Shown: one piece after another, positions 2,847 to 40,204 of the stretch
Numbering within the stretch: the stretch's first letter is position 1
Layout: each line of letters starts with the position of its first letter
NCBI GenBank assembly: GCA_018968925.1
Contig: JAGWZI010000002.1
Coordinates: 1-48,739 of the forward strand
Reading direction: 5' to 3'
Origin: Patescibacteria group bacterium
Lineage (GTDB): Bacteria > Patescibacteriota > Minisyncoccia > Phycocordibacterales > GWA1-40-21
DNA: 48,739 bases
Made by a program: the position numbers and the translations under genes
The notes under the pieces: generated by a model
What the model was told of the DNA's origin: nothing
What the model saw: only the letters and a program-made list of their open reading frames with translations
Databases searched by the model: none

Positions 2847-3223
2847 ACAATGCTGCCTGGCATGATATCGATCCGCCCGCAGGGTTGAAAAGTCTCGTGA
2901 TCGCCCGCGTCGACGCCGCGATCATACGGCGGAACGCGACACGGAAATTCGTCGGCATCGGCACGTTCGTTGCGTCCTTTGCCGCGCTTTCGTACTGTAT
3001 CGTCATCCTTATCCAAGAAATCGGGAAATCCGGATTCTCGACATACGCATCGCTCGCTTTCACGGACAGCAAGCTTGTCCTCGCGAATTTTGGCCAGTTC
3101 GCGCTTTCGCTCGCCGACTCTTTGCCCGTAGCCGCTTTGACGCTCGCTCTTGCCGCATTTCTTGCCGTTCTCGCCGCCGCCAGGTACCTGGCGAACAGCA
3201 AAACGGTCATACAATACGCATAA
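2843..3223 (+). CDS. Putative membrane-anchored anti-sigma factor
   Basis: Its start overlaps the sigma gene stop (ATGA). It is a 126-aa protein with two hydrophobic segments. The assignment rests on position only. Confidence 0.5.
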   Translation: MNNAAWHDIDPPAGLKSLVIARVDAAIIRRNATRKFVGIGTFVASFAALSYCIVILIQEIGKSGFSTYASLAFTDSKLVLANFGQFALSLADSLPVAALTLALAAFLAVLAAARYLANSKTVIQYA

Positions 3224-3251
3224 TTATTCGTCATACATAATTGCACATGCC

Positions 3252-3716
3252 ATGGAAGAATTGAAGAATATCGTCCGGTCGCGAGCGTTCAAGACAACCC
3301 TGTTTGCGATCTTCGGCATCATCGTCGTCATGATCGCATTTCAGGCGGGCGTGTATGTCGGGACGGAACGGGCGGGATTCGCCGACAGGATCGGCGAGCG
3401 CTATTTCCGCACGCTCGAAGGAAGGAATATGGGCGTCATGATGACCGGTAATTTCGACAACGCGCACGGCACCGCGGGAACGGTCGTCTCGGTCAAATTA
3501 CCATTCGCCGTCATCAATGATCGCTCGGGCATTGAAAAGACGGTCGAAATATCAAGCTCGACCGCCATTCGCGACGCCGACGGAGACGAAGCGGCGAGCG
3601 CCGTCGCGGTCGGCGATTTTATTGTCGCCTTCGGCTCGCCGGCGTCGGCATCGTCGTCCGATGCGGTGCTTGTCGCGCGCCTCATCCGCATCCTGCCGCC
3701 TCCGCCCGCGAATTAA
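3252..3716 (+). CDS. Single-pass membrane protein, unknown function
   Basis: The in-frame ATG at 3252 gives MEELKNIVRSRAFKTTLFAIFGIIVVMIAF (N-terminal TM). The C-terminus is Ala/Ser-rich and ends in PPPP. Confidence 0.55.
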   Translation: MEELKNIVRSRAFKTTLFAIFGIIVVMIAFQAGVYVGTERAGFADRIGERYFRTLEGRNMGVMMTGNFDNAHGTAGTVVSVKLPFAVINDRSGIEKTVEISSSTAIRDADGDEAASAVAVGDFIVAFGSPASASSSDAVLVARLIRILPPPPAN

Positions 3717-3742
3717 TCCACATAAATCACTTTTGAAAAAAT

Positions 3743-5707
3743 ATGAATACCGCCGCTTCCGCCAAGCCTGAGACTCGCTGGCAAAAAATGAGAAATTTCG
3801 CATCGGCCCATAAACCGCTCACGATCGTCTCGTGCATCGTCGTCGTGTTCATCGCCGCGGCGGTCGTCGGCAGGGGAGGATCGGCAAGCGCCACAACGTA
3901 CGCCTTCGGACGCGTCACGCGCGGCGACCTTGCGGTGACGGTATCGGGTTCGGGACAGGTCTCCACGCTGAGCCAGGTCTCCATCAAACCGCAAACGGTC
4001 GGCCAAGCGCAGACGCTCGGCCAAATCGTTTCGGTCAACGTGAAGAACGGCGACTTCGTGAAAAAAGGTCAGGTCATCGCGGTGCTCGACGGACAGAATG
4101 CCTTGCAAACGTTAAACCAAGCAAAGGCGTCCGTCGAAAGCGCGCAGGCAAGCTATAACAAGCTCGTCAACGGCCCGACGGCGTCCGAATTGCAATCGTT
4201 CCAAAACAACGTCCAATCGGATGAGACGGCGCTTGTGAACGATGCGCAAAATGCGATCATCCTTCTCGAGAGCACCTACGCGTCGATCGCGAACTCGGTC
4301 TTCATCAACACCGACCCTTTCTACGAAAACGTGACCGGCGTCAATCCGGCGCTCGATGTCTCAGGCGTCAATTTCACGAATCAGACGCTTCAGCATGCGG
4401 TCGAAAGCGAACGCGGAGCGCTCGGAGCAGCCCTTTCCGCATGGGACGCAGAAGTGAATACAGCGGCAAGCTCGACGCAAGACGCCGCATCATCGACCGA
4501 AATCCTGCTGTCCGACTCGCTCAGCTACCTCAATCAGATCCGGCAGTATTTTGACGACATGACGTCGCTCTTCTCGCTCTATGCGGTCGCAGACGGATCG
4601 TCCGGAGCTTCGACCCTCTCGTTGGACAAATCAGCCGCGACCGCCGCGCTTTCGGGTGTCAATTCGTCCATCAGTTCGATCACGTCGTCGCTCCAGTCGT
4701 ACCAGAATGCCGTGACCAAGCTTGCGAACGATCAGCAATCCCTCGCATTCGAGACCGCACCGGCGAATCCCGACGATGTGACCGTATCGAAATCCCAGCT
4801 CGACAATGCGACGGCAAACCTCGCGAACGCCGAAACAAATTACGCTTCGCGCATCATCACCGCGCCGTTCGACGGGCAGATCGGGGGGCTCAACGCCCAG
4901 ATCGGCCAGCAGGTCTCGTCGTCCGATTCGCTCGGCACGCTCATCACCGCCGCGCAGGTCGTAAACGTAACGCTCAACGAAGTCGATGCGGCAAAAGTCG
5001 CGGGCGGTGATCCGGTCACCGTCACGTTCGATGCCGTGCCGAACCTGACCATCCAGGGCCACGTCAACTATGTCGATCCGCTCGGCACCGTCTCGCAAGG
5101 CGTTGTGAGCTACGGCGTCCAGGTTTCGCTCGACGAGCAATCAGGCGCGATCAAGACCGGCATGACGGCAACGGCAAACATCACCGTAGCCGATCATCCC
5201 GGAGCGCTCATGGTGCCGACGTCCGCCGTCAAGACGTCCGGCAATACGACGTACGTCCTCGTGGCGGATATCTCGACATCGAGCCTTCGCAGCATGCTCG
5301 GATTCGGCTCGTCGACGCGCGCATTCTCCTCATCGACATTCCAGGGTTTCCGCAATTCCTCTTCGACTTTCGCTTCAACGAGCGGCGGCTTTCCGGCAAG
5401 CTCGACACGGATGCGCGGCACGGGCGGCATGAACGCATCTATCGAGTTTCCGGCCGGTTCCGAACCGCAGGTCACGGAAGTGCCGGTGACGATCGGCATT
5501 GCGAATGCGACGGAAACTGAAATCCTGTCCGGTCTGTCCGAAGGACAGCTCGTCGTCACGCGGACGCTGACCGGCTCGGCGGTTTCGACTGCAAAATCCG
5601 CAGCGACGCAGGCGACGAGCCGCAATTTCGGCGGCGCGGGAGGCGCGATCCGCATCGGCGGAGGCTTCGGCGGCGGCGCGGTCGGCGCATTCACCGGCGG
5701 GCGGTAA
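3743..5707 (+). CDS. HlyD/MacA-like periplasmic adaptor (membrane fusion protein), unusually long
   Basis: N-terminal TM, a lipoyl-like motif (GDFVKKGQVIAVLD ... ITAPFDGQIGGLNAQIGQQV), a very long helical insert, and a Gly-rich C-terminal tail. It lies immediately upstream of the ABC ATPase and FtsX permease genes. Confidence 0.75.
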   Translation: MNTAASAKPETRWQKMRNFASAHKPLTIVSCIVVVFIAAAVVGRGGSASATTYAFGRVTRGDLAVTVSGSGQVSTLSQVSIKPQTVGQAQTLGQIVSVNVKNGDFVKKGQVIAVLDGQNALQTLNQAKASVESAQASYNKLVNGPTASELQSFQNNVQSDETALVNDAQNAIILLESTYASIANSVFINTDPFYENVTGVNPALDVSGVNFTNQTLQHAVESERGALGAALSAWDAEVNTAASSTQDAASSTEILLSDSLSYLNQIRQYFDDMTSLFSLYAVADGSSGASTLSLDKSAATAALSGVNSSISSITSSLQSYQNAVTKLANDQQSLAFETAPANPDDVTVSKSQLDNATANLANAETNYASRIITAPFDGQIGGLNAQIGQQVSSSDSLGTLITAAQVVNVTLNEVDAAKVAGGDPVTVTFDAVPNLTIQGHVNYVDPLGTVSQGVVSYGVQVSLDEQSGAIKTGMTATANITVADHPGALMVPTSAVKTSGNTTYVLVADISTSSLRSMLGFGSSTRAFSSSTFQGFRNSSSTFASTSGGFPASSTRMRGTGGMNASIEFPAGSEPQVTEVPVTIGIANATETEILSGLSEGQLVVTRTLTGSAVSTAKSAATQATSRNFGGAGGAIRIGGGFGGGAVGAFTGGR

Positions 5708-33929: not shown

Positions 33930-33958
33930 TTGACATATAATAAATAAAGTGATAAAAT
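33930..33958 (+). promoter_or_regulatory. Sigma-70-type promoter TTGACA-17-TAAAAT for the ClpP-like gene
   Basis: -35 at 33930-33935 and -10 at 33953-33958. The leader contains a perfect AGGAGG at 33985-33990. Confidence 0.5.
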
Positions 33959-38618: not shown

Positions 38619-38921
38619 TTATATGAAATCCGGCGCGCGGGACGGTTGCGCGATGATGAAGGAGAGGTCCTTGACGATCGCCGCGACGGTCGCGAAAAAC
38701 GGGCTTTTGACCGGAGCAATATTCTGCTTCTCGATGATTGCCGGCAGAGCGAGGGTGGTTTCCTTGGTGCAAACTTCTTGATGCAAAACCTTGCCGCAGA
38801 CGGCTTTTGCCACCGTCTTGCCGTTCAACTGGACAAGCTCGAAAACGACCGCGGCGATCCTGCCGTCGGGCAAGGTGACGGTCTTCGTAAAGAATTTCGG
38901 CTGTTTTTGGACGGAAAGCAT
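38619..38921 (-). CDS. Hypothetical 100-aa protein inserted between grpE and dnaK
   Basis: The ORF has GC3-rich codon usage like its neighbours. The ATG at 38921 lies 17 nt after the grpE stop. No family recognised. Confidence 0.45.
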   Translation of the reverse strand: MLSVQKQPKFFTKTVTLPDGRIAAVVFELVQLNGKTVAKAVCGKVLHQEVCTKETTLALPAIIEKQNIAPVKSPFFATVAAIVKDLSFIIAQPSRAPDFI

Positions 38922-38937
38922 GTGCAAAGGTATTTTA

Positions 38938-39516
38938 TCACTTTTTCAATTCCCCCACCACCACCTGCGGCGCGACAAGGATGCGGCCGTTCAGACTGAA
39001 GCCCTTCTTTTTCACCGCAAGGATTGTGCCATCTTCGTTCTCGTCGGTAACTTCCTTGATTTCCTCGGCAACTTGTTTCGCCGGATCGAATTTTTCTCCG
39101 GCAGGATCAAGCTCGGCAAGGCCGTTGTCTTTCAGGATTTTGAGAAACTGCGCGTGGATGTATTCCACGCCGACGCGCCAGTTCTTGTCCACCTTCTCCC
39201 AGATCTCCTTGTTCGCAAACGCCATGTCGAAGCTCTCAACGACGGACAAAAGATCGGCAATGAGATTCTCATTCGCGAATTTCACCGTCTCGATCTTTTC
39301 CTGCTCGATGCGCTTCTTGAAATTGACAAAATCTGCCCGCTCGCGCTGCCAGCCGTCGAGGTGCTCCTTGCTTTCCTTCTCGAGTGCTTTGATCTTTTCT
39401 TTCAGCTTCTTCACCTGCTCGCGCGCCACGGCTGGCAAGCCAGAATCCTCAGTTTGTTCCTCTTCGATGACGATATCGTCATTTTCCGCCGCTTTTTTAT
39501 CCATATTTTGAGCCAT
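38938..39516 (-). CDS. grpE: Nucleotide exchange factor GrpE
   Basis: Acidic N-terminus, a coiled coil, and the WQRERADFVNFKKR motif. Confidence 0.9.
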   Translation of the reverse strand: MAQNMDKKAAENDDIVIEEEQTEDSGLPAVAREQVKKLKEKIKALEKESKEHLDGWQRERADFVNFKKRIEQEKIETVKFANENLIADLLSVVESFDMAFANKEIWEKVDKNWRVGVEYIHAQFLKILKDNGLAELDPAGEKFDPAKQVAEEIKEVTDENEDGTILAVKKKGFSLNGRILVAPQVVVGELKK

Positions 39517-39524
39517 TTTTCAGC

Positions 39525-39552
39525 ATTATAGCAATTTTTTTGAAAAAAGCAA
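39525..39552 (-). promoter_or_regulatory. grpE promoter (minus strand) TTGCTT-16-TATAAT ending 8 nt before the ATG
   Basis: -10 at 39525-39530 and -35 at 39547-39552 (reverse complement). No SD and no CIRCE-like inverted repeat were seen. Confidence 0.45.
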
Positions 39553-39561
39553 GAAAAATGC

Positions 39562-39590
39562 TTGACAAGATTTTATTAGTATGCTATCAT
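39562..39590 (+). promoter_or_regulatory. Consensus-like promoter TTGACA-17-TATCAT with no downstream CDS
   Basis: It is divergent from the grpE promoter and drives the candidate RNA at 39597-39733. Confidence 0.5.
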
Positions 39591-39596
39591 ACTTTT

Positions 39597-39733
39597 GTTC
39601 TCGAAAACAGTTCTTTCAAACCCATGGGTGAAATGTTCACCAACCCGGGTCAATGTCCAGGGAACGAATACCCCGGACGCATGTACACATACCGCCCCTT
39701 GCATACTTCACAGTTGCAACCGGGCGGTTTTTT
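39597..39733 (+). ncRNA. Candidate small RNA (about 135 nt), unclassified
   Basis: The unit runs from the predicted TSS to a strand-specific terminator (ACCGCCCCTTGCA...TGCAACCGGGCGGT followed by TTTTTT, 39691-39733). An internal hairpin GGTGAA ATG TTCACC is present. No plausible CDS. Confidence 0.35.
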
Positions 39734-39741
39734 CTTGCATG

Positions 39742-39772
39742 AAAAATCCCGAGATGCTTCTCGGGATTTTTT
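39742..39772. terminator. Bidirectional terminator after rpsI
   Basis: AAAAATCCCGAG / ATGCTT / CTCGGGATTTTT, a perfect 12-bp stem. Confidence 0.65.
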
Positions 39773-39781
39773 GATTCCGGT

Positions 39782-40204
39782 TTAGCGCTTCGACCACTGC
39801 GGGGCCTTGCGCGCTTTCTTGAGGCCGAACTTGCGGCGCTCCTTGGCGCGGGCGTCGCGCTTCAAATAGCCTTCCTTTTTCAAATCTTTGCGGAGTGCCG
39901 GGTCGATCATGGTGAGAACGCGGGCGATCGCATGGCGAAGCGCCTCGGCCTGCGAATTGATGCCGCCGCCCGTGATGACCGCGGTGATGGCAAGATCGTT
40001 TCCCTTGCCCGATTTCGCGAGCGATTCGAGCGCTTTGAGCTGTTGAGCTTCCACCTTGAAATAGTCGGCGATGCTCTTGCCGCCGTTCACCGAAACGGAG
40101 CCTTTTGCCGCCGCTGTCGCGCGGACGCGCGCGACGGAGGTCTTCCTGCGGCCGACCGCCTCGACATACTTCCCTTCCGATTTTTTTACCGTTGATTTGT
40201 CCAT
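39782..40204 (-). CDS. rpsI: 30S ribosomal protein S9
   Basis: The C-terminal RKFGLKKARKAPQWSKR is canonical. Confidence 0.93.
   Translation of the reverse strand: MDKSTVKKSEGKYVEAVGRRKTSVARVRATAAAKGSVSVNGGKSIADYFKVEAQQLKALESLAKSGKGNDLAITAVITGGGINSQAEALRHAIARVLTMIDPALRKDLKKEGYLKRDARAKERRKFGLKKARKAPQWSKR

Follow-up and report, generated by a model that had tools for sequence, protein, structure and literature searches.

The window analysed here, a stretch of 48,739 nucleotides from a Patescibacteria group bacterium, carries on its minus strand the genes rpoA-rplQ-rplM-rpsI, a spacer of 265 nt, then grpE, an ORF of about 100 aa, dnaK and dnaJ, as assigned with Pfam. A plus-strand unit running from a promoter to a terminator occupies the spacer. 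A first-pass annotation had placed such a unit between grpE and rpsI, pointing away from grpE, and all the elements it described were found in place. One correction of geometry is in order: rpsI and grpE are co-oriented, so that the unit lies antisense to each of them, diverging from grpE and converging with rpsI. The features of the spacer and its borders are as follows.

38938-39516, minus strand: grpE, downstream of rpsI
39525-39552, minus strand: grpE promoter, from direct reading of the sequence
39562-39590, plus strand: unit promoter, TTGACA-17-TATCAT with extended -10 TG
39597-39733, plus strand: predicted primary transcript of about 137 nt, promoter to terminator
39603-39617, plus strand: weak 5′ hairpin, not conserved
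39620-39650, plus strand: hairpin A, from RNAfold
39650-39656, plus strand: linker UCAAUGU, from comparison with homologues
39655-39678, plus strand: hairpin B, the best conserved block
39679-39690, plus strand: linker GCAUGUACACAU
39691-39733, plus strand only: intrinsic terminator of the unit, interrupted 12-bp stem then T6
39741-39772, both strands: bidirectional terminator, A-run before and T-run after
39782-40204, minus strand: rpsI, upstream of grpE

The best matches of GrpE and RpsI are MAGs of the Paceibacteria or “Taylorbacteria”-like group (CPR). DNA runs from metagenomes of mine drainage and of soil also contain the stretch: runs X1, X3 and X5 are identical in sequence, with 0 variants within the unit, and the diverged strain of run X8 stops at 39531. 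Relatives were found via GrpE and RpsI, yielding 94 syntenic or related loci; hereafter W designates the window copy and L-numbers (L001, L005, L108 etc.) the related loci compared with it.

The unit promoter consists of a -35 box TTGACA (39562-39567), a spacer of 17 nt and a -10 box TATCAT (39585-39590) within an extended -10 (TGcTATCAT). With an 11/12 match it is one of two sites scoring at least 11/12 on both strands of the 48.7-kb window, along with a site at 33930; block shuffles lead one to expect 0.22. Its earlier description as near-consensus is borne out. As awaited from a stand-alone small RNA gene, the unit would possess a promoter of its own. Facing the other way, the grpE promoter displays a -35 box TTGCTT (39552-39547), a spacer of 16 nt and an extended -10, TGcTATAAT (39533-39525), which ends 8 nt before the first ATG; the grpE transcript would start around 39518. 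Likewise in relatives, CTTGATT or CTTGCTT followed after 16 or 17 nt by TAAAAT or TATAAT directly precedes grpE. The two promoters are arranged back-to-back, with -35 boxes 9 bp apart and presumed start sites about 79 bp apart. A divergent promoter of the form (ATG)CTTGACA-N17-TATGCTAnnAT is found beside the grpE promoter in about 20 related loci.

At the other end, the terminator stem is made of two parts, ACCGCCC/GGGCGGU (7 bp) and UUGCA/UGCAA (5 bp), spanning 39691-39728, and T6 lies at 39728-39733. This hairpin reaches -19.3 kcal/mol (z = -5.5; 0/200 shuffles fold equally well), and it is a plus-strand terminator only, because no T-run follows the 39691-39728 hairpin on the minus strand, in agreement with the strong one-strand terminator previously proposed. 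The consensus terminator scanner missed it, presumably owing to its rule of a 3-8 nt loop and to the interruption of this stem. Homologous units have similar plus-strand terminators whose stems begin with (A)CCGCC. The unit therefore displays the same-strand intrinsic terminator of a stand-alone small RNA gene. The separate hairpin at 39741-39772, already attributed to rpsI as a bidirectional terminator, is indeed flanked by A- and T-runs and has energies of -20.2 and -17.9 kcal/mol on the two strands; it would end rpsI transcription on the minus strand and back up the unit terminator on the plus strand.

We infer that transcription of the unit starts about 7 nt after the -10 box. Folded as a whole, the predicted transcript has an MFE of -41.9 kcal/mol, a modest gain over shuffles (z = -2.1 to -2.65), and the 63-nt core by itself does not differ significantly from them (z = -1.65). 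It is the promoter, the terminator and the comparison between loci, and not the folding energy, that carry the case for a small RNA.

The body of this RNA is dominated by two hairpins. They are preceded by the weak 5′ hairpin, in which CAGUUC and CUUUCAAAC are similar to the 5′ portions of units L001 and L018. Hairpin A has an outer stem ACCC/GGGU, an interior pairing either as GGG/CCC or as a perfect GGUGAA/UUCACC, and a loop that includes UUCACCAAC; the same design recurs in L108_A and L005_A. Between the two hairpins, all three homologues have AAUGU ahead of hairpin B, and CAAUGUCC is common to W, L009 and L008. Hairpin B reads GUCC-A-GGG, then the loop AACGAAUA, then CCC-C-GGAC. In L005, 22/24 of its bases are identical to those of W (GUCCAGGGA-U-GAAUA-GAAA-CCCCGGAC), with loop indels of 1 nt and 4 nt, and L108 has GUCC-U-GGG...CCC-U-GGAU; all B hairpins fold as drawn in RNAfold. 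The linker that follows has as counterparts AAACAAUGU in L108 and AGAUCAAAUG in L005. Both helices singled out by the first-pass annotation are present, the perfect GGTGAA/TTCACC hairpin at 39627-32 / 39636-41 and the CCGGG/CCCGG pairing at 39645-49 / 39672-76. As the CCNGGG half-sites are quasi-palindromic, alternative pairings are possible, of which the CCGGG/CCCGG helix is an example, and the RNA could switch conformations or dimerise.

Seven hairpins of one design were recognized in the three loci (two in W, two in L108, three in L005). MAFFT misaligned them, and the table of pairs was compiled by hand and checked with RNAfold, which brings all seven to the same design, alone and in context. 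An outer stem NYCC/GGRN is separated by an internal loop (1x1 A.C or U.U, or 2-3 nt versus 0-1 nt) from an inner stem GGG(G)/CCC(C), closed by an A-rich terminal loop of 8-15 nt, often containing (A)UGAAUA. Only three members are known, with stems almost invariant between orthologues, which counts against the small RNA reading. At the first outer position A-U, G-C and G.U pairs occur; the second pair is C-G for hairpins of the A and M type and U-A for those of the B type. In the best-conserved hairpin the loop is 8, 12 or 13 nt long depending on the copy, which argues against a DNA operator of fixed spacing and for an RNA hairpin; the GTCC.GGG-N-CCC.GGAC inverted repeat was discarded on this ground as a transcription-factor operator.

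Adjacency of rpsI and grpE is widespread, with a spacer of 15 to about 3000 nt, and the cargo of the divergent promoter differs by locus. In some loci it is a small protein led by a Shine-Dalgarno (SD) sequence: 39 aa in L001, 30 aa in L091, 62 aa in L092, 112 aa in L082, about 80 aa in L084 and 166 aa in L086, further cases being L012/L020, L046 and L061. In others it is an SD-less promoter-to-terminator unit of 110-330 nt (W, L005, L108, L008, L009, L018/L021, L002). Two of the latter, L005 and L108, carry the module of W at the same position and in the same orientation, with a plus-strand terminator of their own behind it. The blocks common to the three are ACCC-AU(U)-GGG, CCC(C/U)GGG, AAUGU, GUCC-N-GGG, GAAUA/AAAUA, CCC-N-GGA(C/U), a CAAUG/CAUGU linker and the (A)CCGCC start of the terminator stem. 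Local alignments, from which promoters and terminators had been removed, were compared with dinucleotide shuffles: W-L005 scores 38 (shuffles 16.1 ± 2.7, p<0.001), W-L108 scores 26 (15.3 ± 2.7, p about 0.009) and L005-L108 scores 52 (19.3 ± 3.5, p<0.001). Weaker links join W to L009 (p about 0.015, with GGGU..UUCACCAAC..CAAUGUCC in common) and to L001 (p about 0.01), and L009 is in turn linked to L008 and L018. These sequence links suggest a fast-evolving superfamily at the grpE-adjacent position.

Identity to W is 70% for RpsI and 58% for GrpE in L005, and 73% and 56% in L108; because of these values, unconstrained DNA should be randomised between the three loci. Judged by the shuffle comparisons, the module, with its three members, appears to be conserved beyond neutral expectation, as a small RNA gene should be, and conservation in relatives, a check proposed by the first-pass annotation, speaks for the unit both through L005 and L108 and through the divergent promoter. 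A regular expression of the hairpin design matches only the W, L005 and L108 loci in 694 kb and nothing elsewhere in the window, so that the design is not an evident dispersed repeat. Nhmmer profiles recovered only the three members, and in a leave-one-out search with nhmmer, which uses sequence only, W was not recovered. The module is also patchy: the nearest relatives by RpsI, L001 (81%) and L091 (77%), have SD-led small ORFs instead, L001 keeping only a vestige of it (ACCCCUGGGUGAAAACGAA). Among 241 million metagenome records, the pattern GTCCAGGGAN{1,3}GAATAN{0,8}CCCCGGAC gave 2 matches, both in unrelated context, and a relaxed pattern gave 13 chance matches in viral contigs.

No known RNA family accounts for the unit. 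Rfam 15 gave 0 matches at gathering score in the window and nothing in 12 related loci; with E up to 10, only terminator-like noise appeared in 39450-39850, and nothing consistent or common to homologues in the L108 and L005 units. ARAGORN detected no tRNA or tmRNA. The covariance scan suggested with the first description yields no clear known family, and the annotation's remark that no convincing match to SRP RNA, 6S RNA, tmRNA or RNase P RNA could be made is upheld, these four being absent from Rfam matches at E up to 10.

We lean, with somewhat better than even confidence, towards the view that the unit is a predicted gene for a non-coding small RNA of about 137 nt, independently transcribed, lineage-restricted and fast-evolving. 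The initial proposal of a candidate novel small RNA gains from the retention of the module in two distantly related genomes and from the failure to find a known family or a translated ORF (discussed below); a candidate it remains.

The alternative that best withstands the data, though we think it rather unlikely, is that selection keeps the divergent half of a conserved bidirectional promoter, e.g. for promoter coupling or supercoiling, the stretch to the next terminator being variable cargo and the 137-nt RNA a decaying remnant or filler devoid of its own function. About 20 loci keep the promoter, and its cargo is nearly always different, be it SD-led proteins of 30-166 aa or unrelated RNA-like units, and the range of rpsI-grpE spacer lengths fits the same picture. 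The closest relative, L001, has its 39-aa ORF there, and the 5′ part of W aligns with the leader and the end of that ORF (p about 0.01); L018 and L021 have their first 45 nt in common and then diverge completely. Filler, however, would not keep 22/24 bases of a hairpin, and the module has been retained despite GrpE identities of 56-58%. Nor would filler account for the 2-3 copies of the design in each RNA, with one and the same loop motif.

Could the minus strand be the functional one? The hairpins would then act in a read-through RNA from rpsI to grpE, in processing, stability or as an insulator, or the plus-strand RNA would serve mainly as a cis-antisense that destroys this read-through; we hold this to be improbable. 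Since rpsI and grpE are co-oriented, a read-through RNA would indeed cross the unit, and W folds better on the minus strand (-53.0 versus -41.9 kcal/mol; z = -3.7 versus -2.1), because A.C mismatches of the plus strand become G.U pairs there, 4-5 in number. Hairpin B even forms a perfect 8-bp stem on that strand in W and L005. In L108, by contrast, the internal U.U of the plus strand reads A.A on the minus strand and its closing G.U reads A.C, so that L108_B folds better on the plus strand. The L008 and L018 units likewise favour the plus strand, but L009 sides with W and L005, its energy being lower on the minus strand. Against this possibility stand also the lack of an upstream minus-strand promoter, the proximal and conserved promoter of grpE and the good terminator that rpsI has of its own. 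As all homologues have the unit promoter on the plus strand and T-runs on that strand only, and the loops are A-rich on it, the RNA is assigned to the plus strand.

A CsrA-type decoy role for the unit is conceivable, and we give it very little weight. In this scheme the RNA would be of the CsrB/RsmZ kind, its repeated GGGA-bearing hairpins titrating a CsrA-like regulator. The CAGGGAUG of L005 equals CARGGAUG, the core of the CsrA SELEX consensus. The module is repeated 2-3 times per RNA, GGGA is present in 5/7 hairpins, and by our own count L005 holds 8-9 GGA in 182 nt where about 2.8 are expected. In favour of this role one may also cite a report (PMC9938205) that places csrA among the strongly expressed genes of ultra-small prokaryotes from groundwater. 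A decoy should expose many GGA in hairpin loops; the W RNA has two, about the chance level, both in predicted stems, and the GGG is likewise predicted in the stem and not in the loop. Rfam gave no CsrB or RsmX/Y/Z signal at E up to 10, and no CsrA gene was found in the window or in 0.7 Mb of related loci. A broader form of the idea, of which we are nearly as doubtful, would see here a Patescibacteria-specific family of regulatory RNAs composed of repeated CCNGGG/A-rich-loop hairpins, decoys of a CsrA-like or unknown RNA-binding regulator, wired to grpE-dnaK via the bidirectional promoter. If true, such a decoy family would tie stress-chaperone expression to post-transcriptional control in organisms without a characterised small RNA regulator.

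Least credible of all is a small protein gene, encoded by the 53-aa frame with ATG at 39624, the 29-aa frame with AUG-UCC at 39653 or the 59-aa frame with TTG at 39595. The 39624 frame is internal to an 81-aa ORF (39540-39785) that starts upstream of the -35 box. It stays open across the unit, and the AUG/GUG of ‘AAUGUCC’ occurs in W, L005, L008, L009 and L018. In one frame L008 and L009 have a CPP..PPGF similarity with synonymous-looking differences; L009 has no start codon in that frame. On the other hand, the candidate frames cross one or both terminators, and no SD precedes the 39624 ATG, an absence that is meaningful because the real genes of this slot carry strong SDs. The 1-nt and 4-nt indels between W and L005, inside the most conserved block, rule out a common reading frame; between W and L009 the spacing of common blocks, 6 versus 10 nt, does not change by a multiple of three either, and the L005 unit has stop codons in all three frames. 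The 53-aa frame has 0 homologues among 5.8 billion proteins and, in Pfam, only a sub-threshold zinc knuckle (14.6 bits against a cut-off of 27). The earlier view that no credible CDS fits the unit is thus confirmed, and the unit appears to contain no translated ORF, as expected of a small RNA gene. CIRCE or HAIR heat-shock operators were also considered for the unit and rejected.

Coming back to the small RNA gene, the following scheme can be proposed. A strong σ70-type extended -10 promoter, back-to-back with the grpE-dnaK promoter, would fire in the opposite direction, and transcription would stop at the unit's intrinsic terminator with the rpsI bidirectional terminator as backup; owing to this double termination, no antisense RNA from the strong promoter would run across the ribosomal-protein operon. 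We infer that an RNA is produced, whose body would consist of two tandem GC-clamped hairpins joined by the single-stranded AAUGU linker. It probably acts in trans, the conserved GAAUA-type loops and the AAUGU linker being the likely surfaces that would touch a target mRNA or an RNA-binding protein. In a search for targets, duplex energies against the 47 translation-start regions of the window were no better than those of shuffled RNA. The plus-strand RNA may also pair in antisense with a read-through RNA from rpsI to grpE. The bidirectional promoter region, common with grpE-dnaK, could couple the expression of both.

Patescibacteria (CPR) have tiny genomes and few recognisable regulators, and our literature search found no characterised small RNA regulator in this group. 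The candidate offers a concrete and testable entry point to CPR RNA regulation, with a defined anatomy, a module kept at about 57% GrpE identity and a constant place beside the main chaperone operon. Perhaps of equal importance to the RNA is the broader picture: a conserved promoter pointing away from grpE, whose cargo, RNAs or micro-proteins, keeps changing, would mark a hot spot at which new small genes apparently arise and disappear.

Set against known systems, the unit itself is what is new, lineage-restricted and unmatched in Rfam, and the class to which it would belong, that of stand-alone bacterial small RNAs, is known. With these, taken as the intergenic, Hfq-independent type of Gram-positive-like bacteria with a σ70 promoter of its own, it has in common a promoter, a structured ORF-less body of about 100-200 nt, a Rho-independent terminator and a fast sequence turnover at a kept position, with conserved motifs in short loops and linkers. 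It differs from those described in belonging to no Rfam 15 family and in a body built from repeats of one hairpin design. CsrB, RsmY and RsmZ likewise show several similar tandem hairpins followed by a terminator, some of them with AGGGA or CAGGGAUG, whereas W has only two hairpins and two GGA, its GGG is predicted paired and no covariance-model similarity was detected. The antitoxin RNAs of type III TA systems (ToxI-like) are also organised as a promoter, an array whose repeats measure about 25-35 nt and a terminator; such an array was rejected for W, where nothing but the terminator of rpsI and that convergent gene lies downstream, with no toxin gene on the same strand, and where the hairpins are of one design and not near-identical direct repeats. 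Two small GC-rich tandem hairpins, with ACGA in the loop of hairpin B, recall the Guanidine-II (mini-ykkC) riboswitch. This too was set aside: loops are of 8-15 nt instead of ACGR tetraloops, ACGA is missing in the homologues, there is no downstream gene and Rfam is negative. REP elements and BIMEs, finally, are clustered imperfect palindromes in intergenic regions between gene ends, as is the unit; they look unlikely here, as no other copy turned up in the 48.7-kb window or in the 694 kb of relatives. Each genome sample shows the design at this one locus (3 in 694 kb), and there invariably between promoter and terminator.

Upstream of grpE lies a conserved arrangement of paired, back-to-back promoters, in which the grpE promoter is accompanied by a divergent TTGACA-17-TGnTAnnAT. 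It occupies 39525-39590 in the window and is found in related rpsI/grpE loci of other genomes (L001, L005, L008, L009, L012, L018, L020, L021, L082, L084, L086, L091, L092 and L108). The pair stands at the head of the rpsI-grpE spacer, a hypervariable slot whose length ranges from 15 to ~3000 nt. The cargo of the divergent promoter differs by genome: in some it is an RNA-like unit, in others a small protein of 30-166 aa, and these proteins are unrelated. The rpsI-grpE slot resembles a hot spot of small-gene gain and loss. In L092, the divergent promoter and a small gene adjoin pyrF, not grpE.

Besides the promoter of the candidate ~137-nt RNA unit (39597-39733, plus strand), only one site in the whole window gives a match of at least 11/12 with TG, and it is situated upstream of a ClpP-like gene:

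Window 33930-33958, plus strand: TTGACA-17-TAAAAT promoter

The two distant relatives carrying the tandem-hairpin module of the window in the same slot, L005 and L108, each encode a small protein 3′ of the RNA unit:

L005 ~3130-3310, minus strand: gene for a 56-aa protein
L108 ~3345-3582, minus strand: gene for a 78-aa protein

These proteins are mutually homologous (34% identity, E = 2e-7) and have no counterpart in the window.

The closest relatives of the window by RpsI (L090, L092, L093 and L094; 76-80% identity) are devoid of grpE after rpsI, and downstream of rpsI they carry pyrF, a gene for a >1000-aa protein that combines beta-helix, LCAT and DUF7379 domains, or both. As grpE is replaced at this position, the rpsI-grpE junction is rearranged inside the window's clade. 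In three other relatives, an element that is missing from the window, CAGAAGUCCGCGGYGGCGGAC...CCGUAAAGAAAACCUGGURUU, adjoins the rpsI terminator:

L084 ~1903-1990, L085 ~2300-2400 and L086 ~1747-1810: conserved element just downstream of rpsI

On the grpE side, two features concern the coding sequences:

Window 39502-39516, minus strand: grpE start region
Window 38619-38927, minus strand: ~100-aa ORF between grpE and dnaK

The second ATG (39504) is the probable start of grpE; GrpE is 188 aa long in its database copy, and the L001 alignment also fits that position. Counted from the inferred start site at ~39518, the grpE leader would be just ~14 nt, without a clear SD. The intervening ORF has no Pfam match and is called at the matching position in L081, L082, L084, L085 and L086 (98-109 aa). 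Because it recurs in place across relatives, it is apparently conserved within the clade as part of the grpE-dnaK operon.

In L008 and L009, the divergent promoter beside grpE drives SD-less promoter-to-terminator units, each followed by a further unit:

L008 ~3665-3796 and L009 ~3655-3800, minus strand: first units, very stable long hairpins
L008 3458-3599 and L009 3441-3615, minus strand: second unit, 3′ of the first, with its own promoter and terminator

Conservation of the second unit between the two genomes is strong (nhmmer E = 4e-23); the unit gave no Rfam match and contains no ORF. It displays complementary blocks in a pseudoknot-like order, GGGUGG..GGAUG..CCCACC..CAUCC, together with a CACAAUU/AAUUGUG helix, and is probably another undescribed structured RNA. 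Folding of the first units gave z = -7.9 for L008 and z = -5.3 for L009. Both share an apical stem AAUG/CAUU with a C-rich loop, UCCCC, which would be suited to pairing with G-rich ribosome-binding sites.
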